The notes beneath the pieces are model-generated. The model worked only from the letters and a program-made list of their open reading frames with translations, had not been told where the DNA came from and made no database searches. From Candidatus Babeliales bacterium (GTDB taxonomy: Bacteria; Babelota; Babeliae; Babelales; UASB340): 32,000 bases of DNA. Of the stretch, positions 2,144 through 31,275 are shown piece by piece. The DNA is taken from positions 8,434-40,433 of the forward strand of contig JAGLWI010000005.1 in assembly GCA_023133515.1 (NCBI GenBank), given 5' to 3'. The position numbers and the translations under genes are program-made. The number at the start of each line of letters is the position of its first letter. Position 1 is the stretch's first letter.

Positions 2144-2209
2144 CCCAAAGCTTACGCTTTGGGCTAACTCAGTGTCGCATTGCCAAAAGGCAAAGCTCTT
2201 TTGAATTTT
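2144..2209. repeat. Structured repeat, left copy (B-L)
   Basis: Hairpin CCCAAAGC-TTAC-GCTTTGGG (2144-2163) and hairpin TTGCC-AAAA-GGCAA (2180-2193). Its reverse complement matches 3667-3715 nearly base for base. Confidence 0.7.
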
Positions 2210-2236
2210 ACATTAATTTTGTTAGGTATTGTTTAA

Positions 2237-2692
2237 ATGTCGAATCACACGTATTCAAGTATGTTTTATCATATTATTTGGTCAACCAAAAATCGTAAGC
2301 CGTATATTAAATGTGAATTTAAATCAAAATTATATGATTTTATTGGAAAAATAATTGTAACAAAAGAATGGATTCCGCTTGCAATCAATGGGACCTCAGA
2401 TCATATACATGTTCTTTTTCAATTATTTCCCAATTATAAAGTTTCTGATGTAGTTTGTTGTATAAAGGCAAATTCTTCTCGTTTTATGAGAGATAATTTT
2501 ATTTCAGAGTTTTTGTGGCAAGGAGGTTATTCAGTTTTTACTGTTGATAAAAAACTATTACCAAAAATAAAAAATTATATTGCAAAACAGGAACAACATC
2601 ATGCCGTATTAACATTTGAAGATGAGCTTATGCTTTTGCTAAAACGAAATAGGATTTCTTATGGTGATTATTTTAAAAGAAAATTGTTATAA
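2237..2692 (+). CDS. IS200/IS605-family Y1 (HUH) transposase, RAYT-like
   Basis: 151 aa. Motifs: YHIIWSTKNRKPYI, HUH motif DHIHVLF, WQGGYSVFTV, and the catalytic-Tyr helix NYIAKQEQHH. This is the layout of IS200 TnpA (YHIVF..DHIHML..GYY..YI..Q). No clear RBS. Confidence 0.8.
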   Translation: MSNHTYSSMFYHIIWSTKNRKPYIKCEFKSKLYDFIGKIIVTKEWIPLAINGTSDHIHVLFQLFPNYKVSDVVCCIKANSSRFMRDNFISEFLWQGGYSVFTVDKKLLPKIKNYIAKQEQHHAVLTFEDELMLLLKRNRISYGDYFKRKLL

Positions 2693-2699
2693 CACATCT

Positions 2700-2806
2700 T
2701 TGAGCACCCGTTAGGGTGCAATACTGAGTTAGCCCAAAGGACCCTCCTGAGCTACGTCGAAGGACGTAAGCTTTGGGCTATGTCAAAGGACGTAAGTTTT
2801 GGGCTT
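2700..2806. repeat. Structured repeat, middle copy (B-M)
   Basis: Hairpin GCACCC-GTTA-GGGTGC (2704-2719). Stem AGCCCAAAG (2731-2739) / CTTTGGGCT (2771-2779) encloses CCTCCTGAGCTACGTCGAAGG. The 20-nt segment AAGGACGTAAGCTTTGGGCT (2760-2779) is repeated at 2786-2805 with 1 mismatch. Confidence 0.7.
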
Positions 2807-2821
2807 GAAAAAATAAAATTA

Positions 2822-2866
2822 TCCTTGTAAAATCGAACTTGAACCTCGAAATTACAAGGAGTTTTT
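2822..2866 (+). terminator. Hairpin / terminator candidate after the transposase unit
   Basis: 9-bp stem TCCTTGTAA (2822-2830) / TTACAAGGA (2852-2860) plus an inner TCGA/TCGA pairing, followed by GTTTTT. Confidence 0.45.
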
Positions 2867-2943
2867 ATAAAGAAAAACAGTCTATAGGCTCTAAATCATT
2901 ATAACCTAAGATTTTATAAAAACGTGAAACTAAAAGCTAAACA

Positions 2944-2994
2944 TTGACAAACTCATTTTTAATTGTTACCTAATAAGTATACAAAAAAGTATAC
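2944..2994 (+). promoter_or_regulatory. Candidate promoter and operator of the toxin-antitoxin operon
   Basis: TTGACA at 2944-2949 with only weak -10 candidates (TACCTA at N17, TAATAA further downstream). AAGTATAC occurs twice (2975-2982 and 2987-2994), 12 bp apart, each containing the palindrome GTATAC. The second copy ends 23 nt upstream of the antitoxin ATG. Confidence 0.35.
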
Positions 2995-3016
2995 CTGTTA
3001 AGTCTATGGAGAAAAT

Positions 3017-3265
3017 ATGTCAAAAATGGTAAGAATCAGCGAAGAAACAAGCACAAATTTAACTGCACTACAAAAATCTACAGGAAAATCCAAAGTTACA
3101 TTAGTTGAAATAGCTATCGACAAGTTATATAAAGATTTTTTTTTACTCAAAGCAAACAGAGCATATGAAAAATTAAAAAAAAATAAAAAAAAATGGAATG
3201 AAGAATTAAAAGAACGAGAAAGCTGGGAAAATACATCAAATGATGGATTAATTAATAATGAATAA
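3017..3265 (+). CDS. Ribbon-helix-helix (CopG/MazE-type) antitoxin
   Basis: 82 aa. GGAG lies 5-6 nt upstream of the ATG. The N-terminus VRISEETSTNLTALQKSTGKSKVTLVEIAIDKLY fits a strand-helix-helix pattern. The C-terminal tail is acidic and Trp-containing. The gene overlaps the toxin gene by 8 nt. Confidence 0.65.
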   Translation: MSKMVRISEETSTNLTALQKSTGKSKVTLVEIAIDKLYKDFFLLKANRAYEKLKKNKKKWNEELKERESWENTSNDGLINNE

Positions 3266-3611
3266 GCTTAAGCCTTCTCGCGGAGAAATCTGGTTTGCAA
3301 ATTTAAATCCAATAGTTGGCCACGAACAATCTAAATCAAGACCTTGCCTAATAATATCAGTTAACCAATTTAATTATGGGCCAGCAGAACTTGTTGTTAT
3401 TCTTCCTATGACAACAAAAAATAAAAATCTTCCTTGGTACGTAGAAATTAATCCTCCAGAAGGAGGAATTAAATTAAAATCATTTATAATCTGTGATCAA
3501 GTAAGAACAATTTCTAAAAAAAGATTAATTGATAAATCTCTAGGCATAATTCACCAAAAAACTTTATACCAAATTGAAAAACGATTAGAAATATTACTAG
3601 GATTAAATTAA
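3258..3611 (+). CDS. mazF: MazF/PemK(Kid)-family endoribonuclease toxin
   Basis: 117 aa. RGEIWFANLNPIVGHEQSKSRPCLIIS closely parallels Kid/PemK RGEIWLVSLDPTAGHEQQGTRPVLIV. ICDQVRTISKKRL parallels RCDQPRTID. Confidence 0.85.
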   Translation: MNKLKPSRGEIWFANLNPIVGHEQSKSRPCLIISVNQFNYGPAELVVILPMTTKNKNLPWYVEINPPEGGIKLKSFIICDQVRTISKKRLIDKSLGIIHQKTLYQIEKRLEILLGLN

Positions 3612-3632
3612 TTTAGCTCAAATATGTGTGAT

Positions 3633-3660
3633 TTGACATATAAATAATACTTAATAAAAT
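3633..3660 (+). promoter_or_regulatory. Candidate sigma70-type promoter for OMP paralog 2
   Basis: TTGACA (3633-3638), 16-nt spacer, TAAAAT (3655-3660). The predicted start falls at the first bases of repeat 3667-3773. Confidence 0.4.
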
Positions 3661-3666
3661 TAATAT

Positions 3667-3773
3667 AAAATTCAAAAGAGCTTTGCCTTTTTGCAATGCA
3701 ACACTTAGTTAGCCCAATGGACCCTCCTGAGCCCTGAGCTTGTCGAAGGGTCGAAGGACGTTAGCTTTGGGCC
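3667..3773. repeat. Structured repeat, right copy (B-R), inverted relative to 2144-2209
   Basis: AAAATTCAAAAGAGCTTTGCCTTTTTGCAATGCAACACTTAGTTAGCCC matches the reverse complement of 2161-2209 with a few mismatches. The GCCCAA..TTGGGC stem carries a ~45-nt loop insert with duplicated CCTGAGC and TCGAAGG cores. The repeat ends 4 nt before the OMP2 RBS. Confidence 0.75.
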
Positions 3774-3789
3774 ATTTGGAGCAAAATTT

Positions 3790-5262
3790 ATGAAAAAATT
3801 TTTTAAAGTTATTTTTATTTTAATTATCAGTATAAATACAGCCTTTGCAACACACACAACAGAAAAAACATTCTTTTTGCCAAGATCTCATGGTGTAAAT
3901 TTACCAATGGAATATACAGCATGGAATGAATTTTTATCTCAAAACACAGAGGAACAATTTGGTACCAATTTTCAAGTAGTTCCATTTTATCAAGAATCCT
4001 TAAACGGAACTGATCTTGGAAAATATTTTGGTGTTAAAAACAAAATATCTTTCAATCTTCATTCTGGACAAGAAGAAGATGTACGTGGCACATACATAAT
4101 TCACGATGCAACAACAGCCGCAGGAAATGTAAATCTTGCAACAATAGAAATATATCCTCATCAAAAAGCAACTGGAATTCGTTTTGATTACTTTCAAAAT
4201 TTAGAAAGAGTAATGGAAAATCTTTATCTAAAAGTAGCAATACCTATAATTTTTTTAAAAAATACTATGAACTTGAAAATCAAAGAAGGAACCGCAAAAG
4301 ATACTTTTCTTGATTATTTCAAAGGCAAAATAGACATCGACTTTGATAGCGCTGGAATAATAAGTGGTCAAGCTCACAACAGCGCTCAAGAATCACTTAC
4401 ACATGCAAAAATTCCACATGATTACGATTACACTGCTGTAGATGTTGCTGATATTGATATCATATTTGGATATAATGTTTTAAATAACAATCGATATAAG
4501 GCATCAATAAATTTAGGATTCTCTTTCCCAACAGGTGAAGAACCAAGTGGTTTTTATGTTTTCGAATCAATAGTTGGTGGTGGAAACCATTGGTCATTAA
4601 ATGCAGGAATTAATTCCAATGCAACCATGTGGAAACATAAATCCAAAAACCTAAAGTTAAACTTTGCCTTAAATTACAAATATCTTTTTCAAAGCACAGA
4701 AAAAAGAACTCTCAAATTAAAAGGGCTACCATACAGTCAATATTATTTAATAGGAAAAATAGGAAGCATTCGAAATCAAACAAAATTCATACCTGCCGCA
4801 AATATCCTTACAAGAAATATTAATGTTACACCAGGAAGCCAAATTGATACCATTTTGGGCTTTTCTTATAATCATTCAGGCCTTATTATTGATGTTGGAT
4901 ACAATTTTTTCTGGAAAAATAAAGAATCCGTATCTTCAAAAGACCACTGGTTTGACGGAAAATATGGAATTTTACATCCAGAACAAATATTGGAAGGAAA
5001 CAAGTCTTTTGAACTAAGCGATAATCCTGTTGCGGCAGGTGTAGATGGTGGAGCAGAAAAATTGATTTATGAGCAAGATTTGGATATTCAAGCAGCCTCA
5101 ACTCCGTCTTTAGTAACTCATAAAATCTATGGTAGTTTAGGGTACCTATGTTTAAAGTTAAAACGTCCTATAATGCTTGGATTTGGATGTAGTTATGAAT
5201 TTGCCGAAAAATATGCCTTAGAAAACTGGCAAATTTGGACAAAAATGGGGATAACTTTTTAA
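3790..5262 (+). CDS. Putative outer-membrane beta-barrel protein, paralog 2
   Basis: GGAG lies 8 nt upstream of the ATG. Signal peptide MKKFFKVIFILIISINTAFA. C-terminus ...WTKMGITF. Blocks shared with paralog 1: KTFFLPR.HGVN..MEYT.WNE, RGTYIIHD, STEKRT, IPAAN.LTR, THKIYG. Confidence 0.6.
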   Translation: MKKFFKVIFILIISINTAFATHTTEKTFFLPRSHGVNLPMEYTAWNEFLSQNTEEQFGTNFQVVPFYQESLNGTDLGKYFGVKNKISFNLHSGQEEDVRGTYIIHDATTAAGNVNLATIEIYPHQKATGIRFDYFQNLERVMENLYLKVAIPIIFLKNTMNLKIKEGTAKDTFLDYFKGKIDIDFDSAGIISGQAHNSAQESLTHAKIPHDYDYTAVDVADIDIIFGYNVLNNNRYKASINLGFSFPTGEEPSGFYVFESIVGGGNHWSLNAGINSNATMWKHKSKNLKLNFALNYKYLFQSTEKRTLKLKGLPYSQYYLIGKIGSIRNQTKFIPAANILTRNINVTPGSQIDTILGFSYNHSGLIIDVGYNFFWKNKESVSSKDHWFDGKYGILHPEQILEGNKSFELSDNPVAAGVDGGAEKLIYEQDLDIQAASTPSLVTHKIYGSLGYLCLKLKRPIMLGFGCSYEFAEKYALENWQIWTKMGITF

Positions 5263-5293: not shown

Positions 5294-5391
5294 AGAACTT
5301 ATACGAAAATTCAAATAAATTTGCAATGCGCTCATCCTGAGCTTGTCGAAGGATGAAGCGCTGTATCCTTCGACAAGCTCAGGATGAGCGC
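5294..5391. repeat. Palindromic element copy A1 (REPIN/MITE-like)
   Basis: Perfect 27-nt inverted repeat: GCGCTCATCCTGAGCTTGTCGAAGGAT (5328-5354) and ATCCTTCGACAAGCTCAGGATGAGCGC (5365-5391), separated by a 10-nt spacer. The AT-rich left extension AGAACTTATACGAAAATTCAAATAAATTTGCAAT is shared with copies at 7274 and 19802. Confidence 0.85.
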
Positions 5392-5437
5392 GTTGCTTAA
5401 TTTTTTTATGTTTTTTATCTCAAAATATATATACTAT

Positions 5438-5543: not shown

Positions 5544-7265
5544 ATGATAAAAAACATTAGAAATGTATTTTTCAAAACATTTACTTGGATATTTTTAGCA
5601 ATATCCGCTTTTTCTTTTACTAATACATATTCCCAGGTTCAAGTTCACAGATTGCAATCTCTTTCACAACAAAGTGCAGACTGTGGTTTTTATGCTACTT
5701 GGGGAGCAAGCTGTATGGCTCAAAACAACTCTTTAAACGAAGCAAGAAAAATATTATTAGATAGAAACTTATTTAATCAAAAATTAATAAATTGGAAGAA
5801 AAACATAAAAAAATATAATGGTACAAAAACCAATATAAATGGTAATGAAATGCATAAATTCGTTCTTCCAACTCTAAACAACAAAGAACACATAACTATT
5901 ATCGATAGTCCAAAACATTTCAACGCTATAAAATCAAACGTTGCTGTTCCTTGTGAACTTATAAAAGGAATCGAAGAATTTCGAAAAAATGGAATTCCTC
6001 ATGCCATTATATACAATCAAGGTGGACACTGGGTTGGCTATGGAATTAGAAAAGAAAACAGACAAACTATAATTTTTAAAACAAATTCTTGCGGAACATC
6101 GGAAAATAAATATGTAGCCAAAAATGGAACAATTGAAGATATGTTATACAAATGGTTTACAGGCCAAGAAAAACTTATTCCAGGTGAAATAATTCAAGAA
6201 ATCGATAGAATTGCAAATACGATTAACTTTAATCAAGATATATTATCTGCCAAAAATTACATTTATAACTTATTTAATAAAGTAATACTTCTTGGATTGC
6301 AAAACACAAAAAGTTACTGCAATATTCTTATTAATAATTTTGATATCATAAAGAATTTTGGACCAGATGCTATAAAAGAAAGTTTCGAAATTTACATTTT
6401 AAATATTTCTAAAAATATAGAAAGATTTAAAAATTATGCTAGTCTTCAACTATATTCTAATTATAAAAATGTTAATATTACAAATGAAAACGCACCATAC
6501 ATACTTAAAAAAATAGCTGATCAATTTAATAAACAATTCTCACTTCAAATTTTAACTTCTACTAATAATGAAAAGAATATAAATCCTTTCTGTAATGAAT
6601 ATGCATATCAAATTCTAAATAATATAATTCAGCAAAATATAAAACCAAAAAGAATAAATCCAATAATAATAAAAGAAAATAAAATCGAAAAAGAAAAATT
6701 ATTTGTTCAACCGGTTACTCCTAAAACTCAAGTTAAAAAAACTACTCCAAAAAAACAAGTTAAAAAAACCATTCAACCCACTACTCCAAAACAAGCAATA
6801 GATCCTTCTGTAATAAAACAAGTTAAACAAACAATAAAAGAAAAGATTAATGAATTTAATTCTTCCAAAGATCCTAAAAAAGCTGAACAACTTATGTTTG
6901 AAATTACTGATCTAATTATAGAATTTAGGTTATGGAAACAATATGCAAAAATGATTAGAGATATGCCAAATAAACTTGAAAAATCAAAAACAAAGGAAAA
7001 AGAAAATAAAACAAAAAAATTAAAATACAATGATGAATCTAATACTCAAATTAAACAGGCAATAAAACGCAGAATTCTTTCTCTTAAAGAACTAATGTCA
7101 AATATTTGGAAACTAAGCCAAAAAGAAAAACAAAGCCTAAATGAATATGGTATAAAAATTGAATTAAATGAAATAATCGAACTAATAGAAAGTGCTCAAT
7201 TAACAAAGCTAGAAAAAGAAAACTTTCAAAAAGACATCAATTTAATAATAACAGCTTTAGAATAG
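5544..7265 (+). CDS. Secreted hypothetical protein with N-terminal papain-fold (Josephin/UCH-like) cysteine-peptidase signature and Lys-rich C-terminal region
   Basis: GGAGG lies 8 nt upstream of the ATG. Signal peptide ...FLAISAFSFTNTYSQ. Q42-x4-C47-G (QQSADCGFYA), then H162-W (IIYNQGGHWVGYGIRK) and FKTNS. This resembles Josephin (Q-x4-C; ICNYKEHWFTVRKL..FNLNS). TPK repeats and a K/E-rich helical tail follow. Confidence 0.7.
   Translation: MIKNIRNVFFKTFTWIFLAISAFSFTNTYSQVQVHRLQSLSQQSADCGFYATWGASCMAQNNSLNEARKILLDRNLFNQKLINWKKNIKKYNGTKTNINGNEMHKFVLPTLNNKEHITIIDSPKHFNAIKSNVAVPCELIKGIEEFRKNGIPHAIIYNQGGHWVGYGIRKENRQTIIFKTNSCGTSENKYVAKNGTIEDMLYKWFTGQEKLIPGEIIQEIDRIANTINFNQDILSAKNYIYNLFNKVILLGLQNTKSYCNILINNFDIIKNFGPDAIKESFEIYILNISKNIERFKNYASLQLYSNYKNVNITNENAPYILKKIADQFNKQFSLQILTSTNNEKNINPFCNEYAYQILNNIIQQNIKPKRINPIIIKENKIEKEKLFVQPVTPKTQVKKTTPKKQVKKTIQPTTPKQAIDPSVIKQVKQTIKEKINEFNSSKDPKKAEQLMFEITDLIIEFRLWKQYAKMIRDMPNKLEKSKTKEKENKTKKLKYNDESNTQIKQAIKRRILSLKELMSNIWKLSQKEKQSLNEYGIKIELNEIIELIESAQLTKLEKENFQKDINLIITALE
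6714..6767 (+). repeat. 27-nt imperfect tandem repeat inside the CDS (VTPKTQVKK / TTPKKQVKK), with a third degenerate unit to about 6797
   Basis: GTTACTCCTAAAACTCAAGTTAAAAAA (6714-6740) and ACTACTCCAAAAAAACAAGTTAAAAAA (6741-6767). Confidence 0.7.
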
Positions 7266-7273
7266 ATAATTTA

Positions 7274-7387
7274 AAAACTTATACGAAAATTAAAACAAAT
7301 TTGCAATGGCGCTCATTCTAGTGCTGAGTATTATCGAAGTATCGAAGAATGAAGCGCTGTATCCTTCGACAAGCTCAGGATGAGCGC
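7274..7387. repeat. Palindromic element copy A2
   Basis: The right arm ATCCTTCGACAAGCTCAGGATGAGCGC is intact (7361-7387). The left arm is expanded: GCGCTCATTCTAGTGCTGAGTATTATCGAAGTATCGAAGAATGAAGCGC. The core differs at 1 position from copy 19802-19914. It starts 9 nt after the stop codon of ORF 5544..7265. Confidence 0.85.
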
Positions 7388-9761: not shown

Positions 9762-9893
9762 GTATCAAGTCTCCTATAATAAAAAACCTTTTAATATAAT
9801 AAATTAGGTTAAAGAATTTTTAATAATATAGAAAGTTTTATTTTTTTCCAGAAATTTATCCCTCGATACAATTTTTTCTCCGAAAAAATCACT

Positions 9894-9934
9894 TCCACCG
9901 TCGCCAAGGCTATGGTGGACAGGTGGGACAAACG
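9894..9934. other. GC-rich hairpin island in the fabG-acpP spacer
   Basis: TCCACC (9894-9899) / GGTGGA (9914-9919) stem around GTCGCCAAGGCTAT, followed by CAGGTGGGACAAACGG. The local GC content is far above the surrounding sequence. Confidence 0.4.
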
Positions 9935-11724: not shown

Positions 11725-13224
11725 TTATTTAAATAAATCTAAATTTTCCTGTAACATCTTTATTAAAAAACTTATCCTTTCCAAGGATTTTTCTTTACCT
11801 AAAATAGTCATCAATTCAAAAACTCCTGGGCTCATAATTTTCCCAGTAAGCGCCAATCTTAAAGGTTGAGCCAATGCAACCAATTTCATATCAACTTCTT
11901 TACAAACATCTTTTGCAATCTTATTTAATTCACTCGTGGTGAGTGCGCCGTAGGCGTGTCGATCATCCTGAGCCTGTCGAAGGATCGAACCATCAAATTT
12001 TTTAAGAGAAGAAATATTATTTTCATAAGATTGCATCAAACCTATACTTTTCTTTGATAACCATTTTTTTATCAAATTTAAATCCAAAACCTTTGGCGAC
12101 TTTGCAAAAGAAATTATATCTTGAACCATATTTAAAATTCTTATCGCTCTTGCTCCATATTGAGTAAAAAGTTCTTCTAACTGTTCTTTTTCCCAAAACT
12201 TTATCAACTCTTCTTTATAATTATTCTCAATATTTTCTACGGCCTTTATAAATCCTTCAAAGTCTAATTTTCTAATATAAACCCCATTCAGCCATTCAAG
12301 TTTTTTAATGTCAAAGATTGCACCCTTTTTACCAACATTATCCAAAGAAAAATGTTTTATCATTTCATCTTTTGTAAAAATCTCTTGATCACCATGAGAC
12401 CAACCAAGACGTACTAAATAATTAAAAAGAGCATCAGGCAAAAATCCTTGTACTCTATATTCATCAACACTCACTGCCGCATCACGCTTACTCAATCTAT
12501 GTCCAGATGGACCAAGAATTAAAGGCAGATGAGCAAAAACTGGTAATTTTTCATTCAATGCTTTATAAATAAAAATCTGTTTCGGTGTATTAGAAATATG
12601 ATCCTCTCCACGTATAACATGAGAGATTTTCATAAAAATATCATCTAATACAACAACAAAATTGTATGTCGGAATACCATCTTGTCTTAAAATTATAAAA
12701 TCATTTATCTGATCTATATCAACACTAATTTTTCCACGTATTACATCTTCAAACTCAATTCTTTTTTGATCTCTCGGAACACGAAATCTTATAGCATAAG
12801 GTTTTTGCAAATCCTGCTCAGAATATTTTTTATCTTTACAATTACACTGCTCTTGCTCAACATAAAATTCTTCAACTTTTTTTGGCTCAGCAGCAACTGC
12901 AGATGGCTGGCAAAAACACGGATAAGCTAATCCTTTTTCTAAAAAATCTTTTGCAATTTTTTTGTGCTCTTCAATGCGAGATAATTGATACAATACTGAT
13001 TCATCTGATAATAATCCCAACCACTTTAATGATTTAAGCTGAAATTCAACATATTCCTTTTTAGATCTTACCTGATCAGTGTCCTCAATACGTACCAAAT
13101 ATTTTCCATTATTATGTCTTGCAAACAACCAATTAAAAATAGCTACACGCACACTTCCAACATGCAAATGACCTGTTGGAGATGGAGCAAAACGAACTCT
13201 TACTTCATTTTTAAAATCTGCCAT
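11725..13224 (-). CDS. gltX: Glutamyl-tRNA synthetase
   Basis: 499 aa. RFAPSPTGHLHVGSVR (HIGH motif), RLSKRD (KMSKS-type), and the C-terminal LAQPLRLALTG. The stop lies 14 nt upstream of the fabD start. Confidence 0.9.
   Translation of the reverse strand: MADFKNEVRVRFAPSPTGHLHVGSVRVAIFNWLFARHNNGKYLVRIEDTDQVRSKKEYVEFQLKSLKWLGLLSDESVLYQLSRIEEHKKIAKDFLEKGLAYPCFCQPSAVAAEPKKVEEFYVEQEQCNCKDKKYSEQDLQKPYAIRFRVPRDQKRIEFEDVIRGKISVDIDQINDFIILRQDGIPTYNFVVVLDDIFMKISHVIRGEDHISNTPKQIFIYKALNEKLPVFAHLPLILGPSGHRLSKRDAAVSVDEYRVQGFLPDALFNYLVRLGWSHGDQEIFTKDEMIKHFSLDNVGKKGAIFDIKKLEWLNGVYIRKLDFEGFIKAVENIENNYKEELIKFWEKEQLEELFTQYGARAIRILNMVQDIISFAKSPKVLDLNLIKKWLSKKSIGLMQSYENNISSLKKFDGSILRQAQDDRHAYGALTTSELNKIAKDVCKEVDMKLVALAQPLRLALTGKIMSPGVFELMTILGKEKSLERISFLIKMLQENLDLFK
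11931..11992. repeat. Palindromic-element arm embedded in frame within gltX
   Basis: On the minus strand, GATCCTTCGACAGGCTCAGGATGATCGAC matches the arm ATCCTTCGACAAGCTCAGGATGAGCGC at about 24/27 positions. It encodes SILRQAQDDRHAYGALT. It forms a GC-rich island inside an AT-rich gene. Confidence 0.75.
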
Positions 13225-15777: not shown

Positions 15778-16671
15778 ATGACAAAAATCACAATGGAATT
15801 AATAAAACAATTAAGAGAAAAAACACATATTGGTATGATGGATTGCAAAAATGCACTAATTGAATCAGAAGGAGATATAGAAAAAGCCATCGAAATACTA
15901 AGAAAAAAAGGTGCTGATGTTGCGCAAAAACGAGCAGATAAAGAAACCAATCATGGCAATATAGAAGCTTGCTTAAACAAAGATTCAAAATCTGGAGCTT
16001 TAGTAAAAATAGGATGCGAAACAGATTTTTCTGCAAATACAAAAGATATGAAAGATTTTGCACTAAATGTATGCAATCACATATTACAAGCAACCCCAGA
16101 ATGTATAGGTGAAGGAGAAAACTGTCTTCTCAAACAAAAAATTGTATCAGATGAAAAAATGACAGTTGAAGATAAGTTAAATGAATTGATTGCAAAAATT
16201 AGAGAAAAAATTGAAATAAAAGAATTTAAAAGATTTCAGATAAAAAAATTCGGTATAATAAATTTTTACATTCATCCCGGTGCAAATCTTGGAGTCCTAC
16301 TTGAACTTGAAACTGATCAAGCTGTTGAACAAAATATAAAAAAAATAAAACAGTTGGCTCTTGATATCTGCATGCAAGTTGCTGTTACAAATCCTTTGTG
16401 TATTAATCCATCACAATTAGATGAAAAAGTACTAGAAAAAGAACGATCACTAATCAAAGAACAACTTCTTGAACAAGGGAAACCAGAAAACATAATTGAC
16501 AAAATTACCGAAGGAAAGATGAACAAATTCTATGAACAAACTTGTCTCTTAAATCAAAAATTCATAAAAAATGATAAATTAACTGTAAAAAATCATATCA
16601 ATCAGATATCAAAAGATACAGGTTTAAAAATAGAGATTAAAAATTTTAAAAGAATGTCTATAGGAAAATAA
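15778..16671 (+). CDS. tsf: Elongation factor Ts
   Basis: ATG at 15778 lies 8 nt after AGGAG; the track start at 15775 is TTG. ELIKQLREKTHIGMMDCKNALIESEGDIEKAIEILRKKG is the UBA-like EF-Ts N-terminus. Confidence 0.9.
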   Translation: MTKITMELIKQLREKTHIGMMDCKNALIESEGDIEKAIEILRKKGADVAQKRADKETNHGNIEACLNKDSKSGALVKIGCETDFSANTKDMKDFALNVCNHILQATPECIGEGENCLLKQKIVSDEKMTVEDKLNELIAKIREKIEIKEFKRFQIKKFGIINFYIHPGANLGVLLELETDQAVEQNIKKIKQLALDICMQVAVTNPLCINPSQLDEKVLEKERSLIKEQLLEQGKPENIIDKITEGKMNKFYEQTCLLNQKFIKNDKLTVKNHINQISKDTGLKIEIKNFKRMSIGK

Positions 16672-17375
16672 TGAAAACAATCATCATAAAATTAAGTGGA
16701 GAACTTTTCTTTTCACTTACAAATCAAGAAAAAAAAGATGATAAAAAATATTTATACAACATAGCCAAACAATTAAAAGAACTAAAAAAAGATTACAGAG
16801 TAGGAATAGTTATTGGTGCAGGAAACATTTTTAGAGGTGAACAAGCAAGTAAAAAACTAGAAATAAAAATTACTACTGCTCATAATGCTGGAATGATTGC
16901 AACAATTATAAATGGTCTTTTATTCCACGATCTCTTAACAACGCAAGAAATTGATTCAATACTTTTTAGCGCAATTCATTGTCCACAAATAGCAGAAATA
17001 ATTAAACAAGACAAATTAGATAAGGCCCTTAAAGAAAATAAAATATTAATATTTTCAGGAGGAACTTCAAATCCATTCTTTACAACAGATACAACATCTG
17101 TAATACGAGCATTACAAATCGGAGCAACTGAATTTTGGAAAGGAACAAAAGTAGAAGGAATATTCACAGCAGATCCGGTTGAACAAAAAGATGCAAAACT
17201 CTTGAAAAAACTTAACTATAATCAAGTAATAGAAAAAGATTTGAAATTTATGGATTTAACTGCTATAACTCTTGCAAAACAACACAATTTAAAAATTAGA
17301 ATTTTTAATATATTTGAAGAGAATTCATTAATAAAAGCAAGTAAAGACGCAAACTTTGGAAGCGTTATTGTTTAA
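16671..17375 (+). CDS. pyrH: UMP kinase
   Basis: 234 aa. IIKLSGE, GAGNIFRG, FSGGTSNPFFTTDT. The ATG overlaps the tsf stop (TAATG). Confidence 0.85.
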   Translation: MKTIIIKLSGELFFSLTNQEKKDDKKYLYNIAKQLKELKKDYRVGIVIGAGNIFRGEQASKKLEIKITTAHNAGMIATIINGLLFHDLLTTQEIDSILFSAIHCPQIAEIIKQDKLDKALKENKILIFSGGTSNPFFTTDTTSVIRALQIGATEFWKGTKVEGIFTADPVEQKDAKLLKKLNYNQVIEKDLKFMDLTAITLAKQHNLKIRIFNIFEENSLIKASKDANFGSVIV

Positions 17376-17417: not shown

Positions 17418-17517
17418 CACGCTCATCCTAAACTTGTCGAAGAATACAGCGCTGCATCCTTCGACAAGCTCAGGATGAGCGCATCTTTTTACATTTTAGC
17501 GCATCTTTTTACATTTT
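17418..17517. repeat. Palindromic element copy A3 plus a 20-nt tandem duplication at its right edge
   Basis: CACGCTCATCCTAAACTTGTCGAAGAAT...ATCCTTCGACAAGCTCAGGATGAGCGC (to 17482). AGCGCATCTTTTTACATTTT at 17478-17497 is repeated exactly at 17498-17517. Confidence 0.8.
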
Positions 17518-18163: not shown

Positions 18164-18183
18164 AAAATAGTAAAATAAAAAAA

Positions 18184-18216
18184 GAGCCTTGGATAAAATC
18201 CAAGGCTCTTTTTTTT
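18184..18216 (+). terminator. Rho-independent terminator after frr
   Basis: Stem GAGCCTTGGA (18184-18193) / TCCAAGGCTC (18199-18208), loop TAAAA, then T8. An upstream A-tract makes it potentially bidirectional. Confidence 0.75.
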
Positions 18217-18308: not shown

Positions 18309-19607
18309 TTAACTAATGATTTGATTTTGCGCAACAAGCTTTTTATTAGTTGTTCCAACGTAAATTGCAATTACTATCCAAAAACCAATAACTCCTAAAG
18401 AAATTAAAGAACCGTAAACTAATAATTGAGAAAGGACAGGAAAAGATGCGGTCACTAAAGAACCTGTTCCTTTTGCAGAACGAGCTCCAAAAACATCAAT
18501 CCAACTCTTTGCTTTAAATTTTACATCTTTACTTGTTGGAAGATACATAATTTCTTTTGCCGGATTATTAAGTGAATAAGTAAAACCTTTTATTGCAATC
18601 ATAGCACCAAAAAATGTCCATAAAACAGGATGTATCCATGTCAAACAAACAGCAAGCGCGATTATACAAGGAAATGCAACTAAGCAAAAAGTTAAACCCA
18701 ATCGTCTTATAAAAATACTTGTTCCAATAAATAAAAAAGTTAATGCAAGAATATTTGCAGAAAGTCCATAGGTTGCTAAAAATTCTGTTGCCTGTTCTAC
18801 TGTATGATAAGTTTTATCAACTAAAGAATTCATTTGATAATCTAAAATTGTTGCCATAATTTCATAAAGAGTTGAAACTGCTAAAATTCCCAACAGGTAT
18901 GGTCTCGAAATTAAAAGTCTCAATCCTTCAATTGGGCCAGTTGCTTTTCTTTCTTCTGTTTTTGCAGGCATTTTATGTGAATATTTTTTCATGAAAAACT
19001 TAATTATTAATGGAACAATAAATACACAACATCCTGCAACAAAAAATAGCCACGGTAATCCCGTTTTTGATGCTTGCAAATCAACAATGTTTCCAAGAAC
19101 AGAACCAAATTGTGCACCAAACAAAATTACTGGATAACCTTTTTTTGCCTCTTTTTGATGTACACTACTTGCAACAAAAGACCAAAAAAGTGCAACAACC
19201 AAAGATCCAAAACTTTCAATAACAAAATAAGAAATCCAAGCCAATAAGCGATATTTACTTATTACAGTATTAGCTAAACCTATTGTTGGATGCTGCAATA
19301 AAAATGAGATCACAATAAAAATTATTGCATACGCAGACGCCATAACATAAATCAACTTATGTTTTTTTAGCCAGTCTACAAGTTTTGCATAAAAGATAAT
19401 AAGACATATTAGAAAAACAACAGAAAACATTTTCGCATAAGGTAGATACATACTCCCTACCATTTTTATAAAAATGGCATTTTTCATTGTACGTAGCATC
19501 CAATATGATCCAACAATAAAGAATAAAGCTCCAGAAAGAAGCCCAAATTTACAAAGATCTTCTTTTGTAAGGTCGCCCCACAAAAAACGAAATATTTTTG
19601 ATAACAT
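18309..19607 (-). CDS. Tlc/Npt-family nucleotide (ATP/ADP-type) transporter-like membrane protein
   Basis: About 432 aa with around 11-12 hydrophobic segments. The N-terminal region (GALFFIVGSYWMLRTMKNAIFIKMVG...LPYAKM...FYAKLVD) parallels Rickettsia Tlc (NYSTLRSIKDGFVV...FLKTY...YVKLCD). The start is placed at the second ATG (19607), 7 nt after AAGGAGGA. Confidence 0.55.
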   Translation of the reverse strand: MLSKIFRFLWGDLTKEDLCKFGLLSGALFFIVGSYWMLRTMKNAIFIKMVGSMYLPYAKMFSVVFLICLIIFYAKLVDWLKKHKLIYVMASAYAIIFIVISFLLQHPTIGLANTVISKYRLLAWISYFVIESFGSLVVALFWSFVASSVHQKEAKKGYPVILFGAQFGSVLGNIVDLQASKTGLPWLFFVAGCCVFIVPLIIKFFMKKYSHKMPAKTEERKATGPIEGLRLLISRPYLLGILAVSTLYEIMATILDYQMNSLVDKTYHTVEQATEFLATYGLSANILALTFLFIGTSIFIRRLGLTFCLVAFPCIIALAVCLTWIHPVLWTFFGAMIAIKGFTYSLNNPAKEIMYLPTSKDVKFKAKSWIDVFGARSAKGTGSLVTASFPVLSQLLVYGSLISLGVIGFWIVIAIYVGTTNKKLVAQNQIIS

Positions 19608-19801
19608 GATCATTCCTCCTTGGCATTGTTACAGCCAAAAAAAAATAACCATCAACATCATCAATATTGAACATAAAAATTAACTGTAATATCAAAGATT
19701 GATGATATTTAAATATTAACTAAAATTTAAAATTTGTCAATTTTGGGCAAAATTTGAGGATTTTTTATAAAAATTTAATCATTTTTGTTCTATATCTGAT
19801 A

Positions 19802-19914
19802 AGAACTTATACGAAAATTCAAATAAATTTGCAATGCGCTCATTCTAGTGCTGAGTATTATCGAAGTATCGAAGAATGAAACGCTGTATCCTTCGACAAG
19901 CTCAGGATGAGCGC
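19802..19914. repeat. Palindromic element copy A4
   Basis: Same left extension and expanded-arm variant as 7274-7387, with 1 mismatch in the ~79-nt core. It ends in ATCCTTCGACAAGCTCAGGATGAGCGC. Confidence 0.85.
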
Positions 19915-30258: not shown

Positions 30259-31275
30259 TCAAATTGATTCAATAACCTTCCACACTTTTACATATGATTC
30301 ACAATTTGAAACTGATACAAAAATACTACTAGAAGAATTTGGATGGCATGATATTGAACTAATCACATTTTCATTTTCATTTATATTTTTATTTTTACAA
30401 TAAAGTTCTGCATCATTAAAACCACTACTTATTTCTAGATCACCTTCTCTAGAACCAAAAACAAGTATATCGTTTCCTTTAAATAACATCCAATCCATAG
30501 AACAAATATCACTACATCGATTAAACAAATCCCAACAATACAGATACGTGTTATTTAAAATTTTTACTTTTACATTCTTAGAAAATCCAAACGCAATATT
30601 CTTGTTTTCTATATTCTTAGAAAATGCTAACGAACTAATACTGTAATCATATTTATATTTTCTAATATATCTGCCAGATTCTATATTTTGTAATATTACT
30701 TGCCCATTCTGTAATCCAAAAGCAAAAATATTAGAATTCGGATCAATATCAGATTTAACAACACTAATTCCATATTCATATTTAGGGAAGGTTTTAATAC
30801 ATTTTTCATTATTCCATATCTTTACTGTCCCATCAGCTGATCCAGAAACAAGAATGTTAACTTTTGAATCAGAATGAAACGCAACATACAAAGCACCTTG
30901 CTGATGCCCTTTTAAAGTCTTTAAGCATTCTCCAGTTTCTATATTCCATATTTTTATTTCCCCATCAAATGATCCAGATGCAAGAATATTAGAATTCGGA
31001 TTTGGGTGAAAATCTAATGAACAAACTCGATCTTTATGCCCTTCTAAAGTTTTAATATATTTACCTGTTGTTATATCCAATATTTCTATCTTTTTATTCC
31101 ATGAACCACATGCAAGAATATTAGATTCTGAATCAGGTTTAAATTTTGCAACGTAAAAATTTTGCCTCTCATCATTTGATTTAATTGTTTTAATTAACTT
31201 AAAATCTATTTCACATACCATAGCATCATTTAAACCAAACAATATCATAGTTGTAATGAGCAACAGTTTTTTCAA
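30259..31275 (-). CDS. WD40-repeat protein with a hydrophobic N-terminus
   Basis: Repeats such as LEGHKDRVCSLDFHP...ILASGSFDGEIKIWN and LKGHQQGALYVAFH...LVSGSADGTVKIWN. The start codon at 31275 is TTG, 5 nt after GAAGGA. The N-terminus is MKKLLLITTMILFGLNDA. Confidence 0.8.
   Translation of the reverse strand: MKKLLLITTMILFGLNDAMVCEIDFKLIKTIKSNDERQNFYVAKFKPDSESNILACGSWNKKIEILDITTGKYIKTLEGHKDRVCSLDFHPNPNSNILASGSFDGEIKIWNIETGECLKTLKGHQQGALYVAFHSDSKVNILVSGSADGTVKIWNNEKCIKTFPKYEYGISVVKSDIDPNSNIFAFGLQNGQVILQNIESGRYIRKYKYDYSISSLAFSKNIENKNIAFGFSKNVKVKILNNTYLYCWDLFNRCSDICSMDWMLFKGNDILVFGSREGDLEISSGFNDAELYCKNKNINENENVISSISCHPNSSSSIFVSVSNCESYVKVWKVIESI

Follow-up and report, generated by a model that had tools for sequence, protein, structure and literature searches.

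We describe here a GC-rich hairpin repeat of which one copy has, with a probability that we put at roughly 85%, been inserted in frame into gltX, the gene for glutamate--tRNA ligase (GluRS), of a Candidatus Babeliales bacterium, where it encodes a tolerated loop of 18 residues. The sequence analysed is a 32-kb stretch of genomic DNA (32,000 nt, 29.3% GC; hereafter the window) from this AT-rich intracellular member of the Dependentiae, in which an initial annotation had reported the arm of a palindromic element within gltX.

In-frame insertion of a repeat copy into gltX

The gltX gene (11725-13224, minus strand) is an intact open reading frame (ORF) of 499 codons, and its product has the features of a bacterial GluRS, namely a class I catalytic domain (PF00749 tRNA-synt_1c, residues 7-311, E=1.5e-92) with HIGH (HLHVGS) and KMSKS-type (LSKR) motifs, and a GluRS anticodon-binding domain (PF19269 Anticodon_2, residues 411-486, E=8.6e-18). 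The identical protein is named in the database as glutamate--tRNA ligase of Candidatus Babeliales bacterium (phylum Dependentiae/TM6). The gene lies in the order plsX, an unknown gene, gltX, fabD, fabG, acpP, fabF, of which gltX-fabD-fabG is common to the orthologous Dependentiae loci compared, with rpmF, plsX and the unknown gene also listed as shared. In an alignment of 37 Dependentiae GluRS sequences (alignment A1), all family-invariant residues and the catalytic motifs are kept in the window protein, and from these residues, the motifs and the shared synteny the gene looks functional.

Codons 412-429 of this gene (11938-11991, minus strand; coding strand GGTTCGATCCTTCGACAGGCTCAGGATGATCGACACGCCTACGGCGCACTCACC) form a segment of exactly 54 nt, a multiple of three, that starts on a codon boundary (coding-sequence offset 1233, running from 11991 down to 11938), contains no stop and encodes the peptide GSILRQAQDDRHAYGALT, its boundaries having been set by protein alignment with an uncertainty of 1-2 codons. 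The 49-nt string quoted in the initial annotation occurs exactly once (11938-11986, minus strand) and is read through as ...KKFDGSILRQAQDDRHAYGALTTSELNK... without a stop, as had been stated. The GC-rich island described in an AT-rich gene is likewise real: the insert has a GC content of 61% vs 30.3% for gltX without it, and its value of 0.611 is the highest of any 54-nt stretch in the window, attained at just three places. The 3′ end of the insert lies 21 residues upstream of the LAQPLRLALTG block, in agreement with the proposed location in the C-terminal anticodon-binding region.

Comparison with orthologs identifies the segment as private. Residues G412-T429 are gapped in 36/36 other Dependentiae GluRS of the alignment (50-69% identity), and no counterpart was found in the GluRS of E. 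coli, T. thermophilus or T. maritima, whose solved structures were compared. A lineage-specific insertion of 15-20 aa had been predicted, with a homologous segment in distant orthologs named as the observation that would speak against it; the insertion measures 18 residues, the distant orthologs lack it, and among the GluRS compared it is unique to one species-level lineage.

The sequence of the insert identifies it as repeat DNA. The 22-nt arm core TCCTTCGACARGCTCAGGATGA has seven copies in the window at ≤3 mismatches, vs 0.00 expected from shuffled sequence; six are arms of four intergenic palindromes, and the seventh, the gltX copy, is the sole one inside a gene and deviates at one position over 22 nt (alignment A4). 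The arm-homologous segment (11959-11985, minus strand) matches the longer arm ATCCTTCGACAAGCTCAGGATGAGCGC at 24/27 positions, precisely the agreement first reported, and forms on the plus strand the hairpin unit TCATCC-TGAGCCTGTCGAA-GGA with a 13-nt loop at 11969-11981.

All four full palindromes are intergenic, lie 3′ of genes and have T-rich tails. The palindrome at 5328-5391, 3′ of ORF 3790-5262, consists of two inverted arms followed by a T-rich tract and folds at -65 kcal/mol (z = -12.8). A second (17420-17482, z = -6.5) follows ORF 16671-17375, whereas those at 7309-7387 (3′ of ORF 5544-7265) and 19836-19914 (between two minus-strand genes) are 99% identical to each other, with a degenerate AT-rich left arm in both. 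An intrinsic-terminator scan flags 7373-7385 and 17468-17480 within the palindromes, whose stems exceed the limits of the scanner, and the sequences on either side of the four contain no consistent direct repeats. Ahead of three of them (at 5294-5338, 7274-7318 and 19802-19846) stands a conserved AT-rich head of 34-45 nt (AGAACTTATACGAAAATTCAAATAAATTTGCAAT), which means that the repeat extends beyond the palindrome. Directly 3′ of the 17420-17482 palindrome there is also a perfect tandem duplication of GCGCATCTTTTTACATTTTA (two copies, 17478-17517).

Composite architecture and strain-level turnover

A sister strain is available for comparison. An ENA scaffold (ERZ23498622 scaffold_3751, here L004) differs from the window by 17 single-nucleotide polymorphisms (SNPs) over 12,766 bp (99.87% identity), none of them in gltX, and its gene content differs from that of the window beyond one end; it is a distinct strain and not a re-assembly of the window sequence. 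Since this different strain has the same gltX, the population contains at least two strains with the insert. Two of the 17 SNPs (17449 and 17469) fall inside the 17420-17482 palindrome. Synteny between the two strains, compared from 18168 onward, stops at a strong bidirectional terminator-like hairpin (18177-18215), beyond which the sister strain has a gene for a PLA2_B phospholipase and the window one for a TLC-type ATP/ADP translocase (18309-19613).

The insert was initially taken for a bare arm of the palindromic element, a description that fits its first ~27 nt, whereas the 54 nt as a whole look like a composite in which one hairpin unit is nested in another. On the plus strand the sequence can be parsed as GGTGAG - TGCGCCGTAGGCGTG - TCGA - [TCATCC TGAGCCTGTCGAA GGA] - TCGA - ACC, and its ends, GGTGAG...TCGAACC, correspond to the two halves of a second common hairpin variant (stem CCAT/ATGG). 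The 3′ part of the insert (CACGCCTACGGCGCACTCACC; 11938-11958, minus strand), read with the 5′ GGTTCGA, would make up this outer unit. A direct TCGA repeat brackets the inner unit, although TCGA also belongs to the motif itself. With the 26-nt inner part removed, the outer unit aligns with an element of the sister strain at a score of 28, compared with 13.3 +/- 2.8 for shuffled sequences, of which 1/2000 reach that score. Because the outer (28 nt) or the inner unit (26 nt) alone would shift the frame, insertion of a pre-formed composite in a single step is probable; the composite probably came from a donor copy, and no donor was found in the 1.2 Mb searched.

Similar nested forms occur at 2033-2084, in a GluRS insert of another Dependentiae genome (P0040, see below), and next to a related transposase at locus L209. 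The first of these is an intergenic variant unit, TCCTTCGAC[TACGAGCCTTCGGCTCTTC]GCTCAGGACGAGCGG, in which a small hairpin replaces the loop centre. Two paralogous copies on the plus strand provide a direct comparison (alignment A3): 2717-2778, located 3′ of the transposase gene tnpA, is a GTTAGCCCAAAG...CTTTGGGC hairpin with a CCTGAGC-TAC-GTCGAAGG unit in its loop, and 3697-3775 differs from it by a whole additional CCTGAGCTTGTCGAAGG unit nested at the loop centre.

At the site of the window element 5294-5403, the sister strain has identical flanks and a different element (CATGGTGAG[...]TCAAACCAT). The window carries the AT-rich head plus palindrome there, and the sister strain carries CCGTTCATGGTGAG[AGACGTACGCAGCACGGTGTA]TCAAACCATTTGAACGG. 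This comparison shows that a repeat cassette has been replaced on a strain-level time scale, and such strain turnover shows that the elements change within a short time.

Structural placement and consequences for the synthetase

An AlphaFold2 model built on alignment A1 (mean predicted local distance difference test score, pLDDT, 86; predicted TM-score, pTM, 0.83) has bacterial GluRS as its best Foldseek matches (TM 0.78-0.83) and is confident throughout the catalytic core. Residues 411-424 have pLDDT values below 50 and link the confident helices 393-405 and 430-444, which places the insert at a turn between helices in the anticodon-binding domain, with one helix separating it from the conserved AQPLR...SPG block downstream. 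In T. thermophilus GluRS, W407 is the equivalent of window F410, the helix after the insert carries the R417 counterpart, and the AQPLR...SPG block corresponds to residues 431-446, which we take to be the anticodon pocket in the GluRS-tRNA complex of that species. As for the surface loop proposed at the outset, the inter-helix link and the low pLDDT are both present in the model, and from these two features we infer that the segment is exposed; the 18-residue hydrophilic loop is predicted to be probably disordered.

The form in which the repeat entered the gene may have mattered for its coding capacity. The 54-nt insert is free of stops in 3/6 frames vs 1/6 for the full palindrome, which measures 64 nt, is not a multiple of three, has stops in the other 5/6 frames and would add a very stable hairpin to the mRNA. 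A functional mRNA hairpin within gltX was also considered and rejected, the RNA fold of the insert region being not significantly more stable than shuffled sequences (z = -1.7 and -0.75).

Related insertions recur in the same enzyme elsewhere in the phylum, in line with the suggestion that further in-frame peptides of this kind should be sought. Several of the 37 aligned GluRS carry private insertions, and those of P0040, P0017 and P0022 hold repeat-derived peptides in frame. In the P0040 gene (36% GC) there are three GC-rich inserts (51-57% GC), one of which lies five residues upstream of the window site, has the same arm ends as the window repeat (TCTTCGACAG...GCTCAGGATGAGCGG) with a nested inverted unit, and is translated in a frame different from that of the window insert, giving ...LEGLRMSG. 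The inserts of P0017 (117 nt, 58% GC) and P0022 (42 nt, 52% GC) contain a second GC-rich repeat family (CGCCAAGGCTAYGGNGGACA), of which the window has an intergenic copy (CCGTCGCCAAGGCTATGGTGGACAGG) at 9889-9931, between acpP and fabG. The consensus of this second family is roughly CGCCAAGGCTAYGGNGGACAGG, read as 'AKAMVDR' or 'AKATEDR'; it is in frame in the P0017 and P0022 genes (L002, 262-1815; L211, 8001-9470) and also flanks transposase relatives (L206, L209). A private insertion in P0039 was left out of the count as a repeat-derived case, since it is not GC-rich (38%). Clusters of insertion sites follow residues ~116-128, ~333 and ~404-411 (window numbering), two of these regions being low-confidence segments of the model, and the independent inserts amount to a natural map of permissive GluRS loops. 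In P0052, a tandem peptide repeat (PGGSVPDGSVPDGSV) in the catalytic domain, after reference residue 72, is an in-frame expansion of another, microsatellite-like kind.

The simplest reading of these data is a tolerated, near-neutral insertion that passed the filters of frame, stop codons and structure; rather than being adaptive, the loop is most probably tolerated, with a neutral or slightly deleterious effect. Three observations weigh against this account. First, the residue at the 3′ edge of the insert is Thr in the window, where the Dependentiae orthologs have a nearly invariant His, a substitution that may indicate some functional cost or a compensating change. Second, the orthologs include no close empty-site allele, the nearest being about 67-69% identical, so that the exact boundaries, a target duplication and the age of the event cannot be fixed. 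Third, the composite parse was made post hoc, and a search of the window and of 1.2 Mb of retrieved loci gave no second copy of the 3′ half of the insert.

Retention of the loop for a new property of GluRS, such as an altered contact with the tRNA anticodon arm, a site for binding a partner or a regulatory hairpin inside the mRNA, is in our judgement improbable. The position of the insert would suit such a role, since it caps the N-terminus of the helix bearing the counterpart of R417 in T. thermophilus, with the AQPLR...SPG block one helix further on, but restriction of the insert to one species-level lineage gives no support from conservation, the loop is predicted to be disordered, and the fold statistics given above do not favour a regulatory hairpin. 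The independent P0040 insert five residues away, which might also be cited in favour, is equally explained by a permissive loop, and the absence of gltX SNPs between the two strains carries little information, since purifying selection on a 54-nt stretch could not be recognised from as few as 17 SNPs in 12.8 kb.

It is very unlikely that this gltX is instead a decaying or redundant copy whose work is done by another GluRS gene. Some bacteria do have two such genes (GluRS1 and GluRS2 of T. maritima are both among the PDB matches), and loss of the nearly invariant His at the insert edge could be read as early decay. Nevertheless, the ORF is full-length and keeps every family-invariant residue, including the HIGH and KMSKS-type motifs, its gltX-fabD-fabG context is conserved, the gene is identical in two strains, and its catalytic core is modelled with confidence. 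A tolerated insertion into a working gltX remains our preferred reading.

Authenticity of the insertion

The window derives from a metagenome-assembled genome (MAG), and short GC-rich repeats can mislead assemblers, for which reason a chimeric join of repeat-containing reads, or another assembly or library artefact, was weighed and judged highly improbable. The identical 499-aa protein was recovered from three pipelines, on an NCBI MAG contig (DAOVLQ010000003.1, GCA_030631185.1), the ENA scaffold and a Logan contig, one of them representing a different strain; moreover, the segment is exactly in frame, stop-free and a multiple of three in a gene that is otherwise perfectly conserved.

The notion that there was no insertion at all, the segment being an ancestral loop lost by all other lineages or a chance resemblance to the repeat, has nothing in its favour beyond the missing empty-site allele and is effectively refuted by the gap in 36/36 orthologs and all solved GluRS structures, the 61% GC of the segment in a 30% GC gene, and the 22-nt one-mismatch match to a multi-copy repeat with an expected count of 0.00.

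A hairpin family across phyla

Wider searches showed that the repeat is not private to this lineage. In its hairpin unit, a covarying stem encloses a conserved 13-nt loop, TGAGCYTGTCGAA, the consensus being cTCAYSS-TGAGCYTGTCGAA-SSRTGAg. A scan of one genome per GTDB species (596 Gb) for the exact 23-nt core TCATCCTGAGCYTGTCGAAGGAT yielded at least 120 loci, against an estimated ~0.03 chance matches, and the matches listed include Alphaproteobacteria, Chloroflexota, Verrucomicrobiota, Acidobacteriota, Elusimicrobiota, Bacteroidota, Nitrospirota, Patescibacteria and others. The 13-nt loop occurs without a mismatch in 224 units within the 875 kb of the loci listed.

Covariation was assessed on 81 unique units found by the loop alone, with stems not preselected. 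The two loop-adjacent stem positions pair in 94% and 90% of the units, vs 56% and 49% after shuffling (maxima 68% and 65%; n=81), and swaps between C-G and G-C are frequent in the stem. Since the stem pairs covary, the hairpin itself is selected. In other AT-rich genomes, 0/15 units lie within credible genes.

Carriage by phages or plasmids was rejected as the cause of the spread across phyla: no phage matches were found for the hairpin, and the plasmid matches come to just 9 records, all environmental proteobacterial megaplasmids with the unit in unannotated spacers. A known RNA family was likewise discarded, as Rfam 15 gave 0 window matches at gathering score and at permissive thresholds the hits were generic models of long hairpins, none of which reached half of its gathering score. 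A search of the literature by sequence, encoded peptide and topic found no description of the hairpin, although it covered open-access papers alone and is weak evidence of novelty.

In several genomes of other phyla (loci L028, L070, L094, L037 and L109), half-units form direct tandem arrays, for example CTCATCCTGAGCTTGTCGAAGC at a 22-nt period and GGATGAGCTTGTCGAA at a 17-nt period, and such arrays suggest that slippage or template switching is one of the ways in which the units are amplified.

A broader interpretation, which we consider possible though rather doubtful, is that the gltX insert is one manifestation of an undescribed hairpin element of many phyla that multiplies within genomes, nests in its own loops, shows turnover among near-identical strains and, in AT-rich Dependentiae, reshapes loops of essential proteins, GluRS among them, time and again. 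Were this true, and were a dedicated protein or loop-recognising template switching responsible, the element would constitute miniature DNA of a new class, mobile or self-propagating, whose range of hosts is unusually broad. The cross-phylum hairpin is the part of the finding that deserves follow-up.

Candidate mobilisation by a Y1 transposase

The window encodes an IS200/IS605-family Y1 (HUH) transposase, tnpA (151 aa; 2237-2692, plus strand), which we considered as the mobiliser of the repeat. Its role as a cognate transposase of the kind associated with repetitive extragenic palindromic (REP) sequences, the REP-associated tyrosine transposase (RAYT), was rejected. The protein scores 78 bits with the NCBIfam model for IS200/IS605 (cutoff 55) vs 18.8 bits with that for RAYT (cutoff 80), and its own flanking hairpin, GTTAGCCCAAAG...CTTTGGGC, has a different sequence that is common to its three closest relatives. 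The loop motif lies within 2.5 kb in 4/80 metagenome loci encoding relatives of this Y1 protein and is adjacent in 0/80; conversely, a Y1 relative is encoded at 1 of the at least 120 hairpin loci, among the matches listed. Although the link was rejected, the repeats do cluster around the Y1 transposase in two genomes. An enzyme that targets loops and template switching in quasi-palindromes would each be compatible with nesting at the loop centre.

The surroundings of tnpA are themselves noteworthy. Within 2159-3717, it is accompanied by a gene for a MazF/PemK-like toxin (3258-3611) and a small upstream ORF (3017-3265, a possible antitoxin), and the whole is bracketed by 97-nt inverted repeats (2159-2255 and 3621-3717) that are 90% complementary, with GTTAGCCCAAAG...CTTTGGGC hairpins at both ends; the region could be a composite mobile or invertible module. 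It is flanked by two paralogous ORFs, 439-2031 (530 aa) and 3790-5262 (490 aa), which share one 74-nt stretch of 85% identity, contain several GC-rich patches and have no Pfam or NCBIfam match. Elsewhere in the window, ORF 30259-31275 (minus strand, 338 aa) contains four diverged direct repeats at 30674-31133 with a period of 126-132 nt, consistent with the WD40-like or similar protein repeats reported for TM6 genomes (PMC4776705).

Proposed course of events

Taken together, the sequence comparisons suggest the following course. A 54-nt copy of the GC-rich hairpin repeat would have been inserted into gltX of a Candidatus Babeliales lineage, its landing site being a turn that joins two helices in the C-terminal anticodon-binding domain. 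The donor would have belonged to a family that in this genome consists mainly of inverted doublets just 3′ of genes, the units of which turn over between near-identical strains and can sit in one another's loops; the gltX insert would be such an arrangement, with a TCATCC...GGA unit breaking up an outer GGTGAG...TCGAACC unit. The gene would have stayed open through the arrival of 54 nt in a stop-free frame rather than of the full palindrome with its -65 kcal/mol hairpin, and the enzyme would have gained the hydrophilic loop GSILRQAQDDRHAYGALT.

Comparison with known systems

The closest precedent is provided by the Rickettsia palindromic elements (RPEs), which are inserted in frame in protein genes (Ogata et al. 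2000/2002, as cited in PMC10969869). The initial annotation had inferred the same phenomenon with an unrelated repeat; an in-frame repeat insertion absent from orthologs is what we found, and the repeat is judged unrelated from its size, architecture and distribution. As with RPEs, a palindromic or hairpin repeat of an AT-rich obligate intracellular bacterium stands in frame in unrelated housekeeping genes and is read through, the peptide is added at a probably fold-compatible position, and the same family also occurs between genes. Unlike RPEs, which measure ~100-150 bp and comprise RPE-1 to RPE-10 of Rickettsia and relatives, the window repeat is about five times shorter, with units of ~22-33 nt and an insert of 54 nt, and the host belongs to the Dependentiae. 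Whereas each RPE encodes a conserved peptide, the frame of translation varies among copies of the window family (ILRQAQDD here, GLRMSG in P0040), and the insert is a half-palindrome or nested composite of a unit found in many phyla.

In other respects the family resembles REP sequences and REPINs (PMC3337134, PMC3116915, PMC5581495): the units are short imperfect palindromes of ~20-35 nt, are often paired, as in the REPIN architecture, into inverted doublets around a short spacer, lie in the great majority outside genes and on their 3′ side, and occur in many copies per genome, with a Y1 gene among the repeats in the window. REP families are normally genus- or species-specific, whereas the loop of the window hairpin is conserved across phyla. 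The Y1 protein of the window, the one place where a RAYT was sought, is of the IS200 type and has a different cognate hairpin. A conserved 5′ GTAG head is reportedly present on REP sequences, a description attributed to Nunvar et al. 2010. No such head was seen here: the flanks of 135 + 81 units show cTCAY..., and a GTAG/GTTAG head occurs instead on the hairpin beside tnpA.

[quoted passage not shown] The present unit is much shorter than typical MITEs, and its arms are inverted repeats, for which the combination of terminal inverted repeats and target-site duplication of a parent insertion sequence (IS) could not be shown. With regard to nesting, the use of hairpin loops as insertion sites, from which nested structures result, has a parallel in two further elements. 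IS1397 and ISKpn1 target the loops of REP sequences and bacterial interspersed mosaic elements (BIMEs). The inserted object here is a hairpin unit of 17-26 nt and not a complete IS, and template switching at replication within quasi-palindromes could yield the same nesting without a transposase.

For annotation, these comparisons carry a warning that GC-rich islands in AT-rich genes, and 'hypothetical proteins' with LRQAQDD, FDKLRMS or LSLSKD peptides, represent repeat DNA. The gltX insertion is of the RPE-like kind already known, in a new lineage and with a new repeat family. Its wider meaning is that palindromic repeats have colonised essential genes in frame outside Rickettsia as well: this has happened in an unrelated intracellular phylum, with a different and much shorter repeat, and several times independently in one enzyme.

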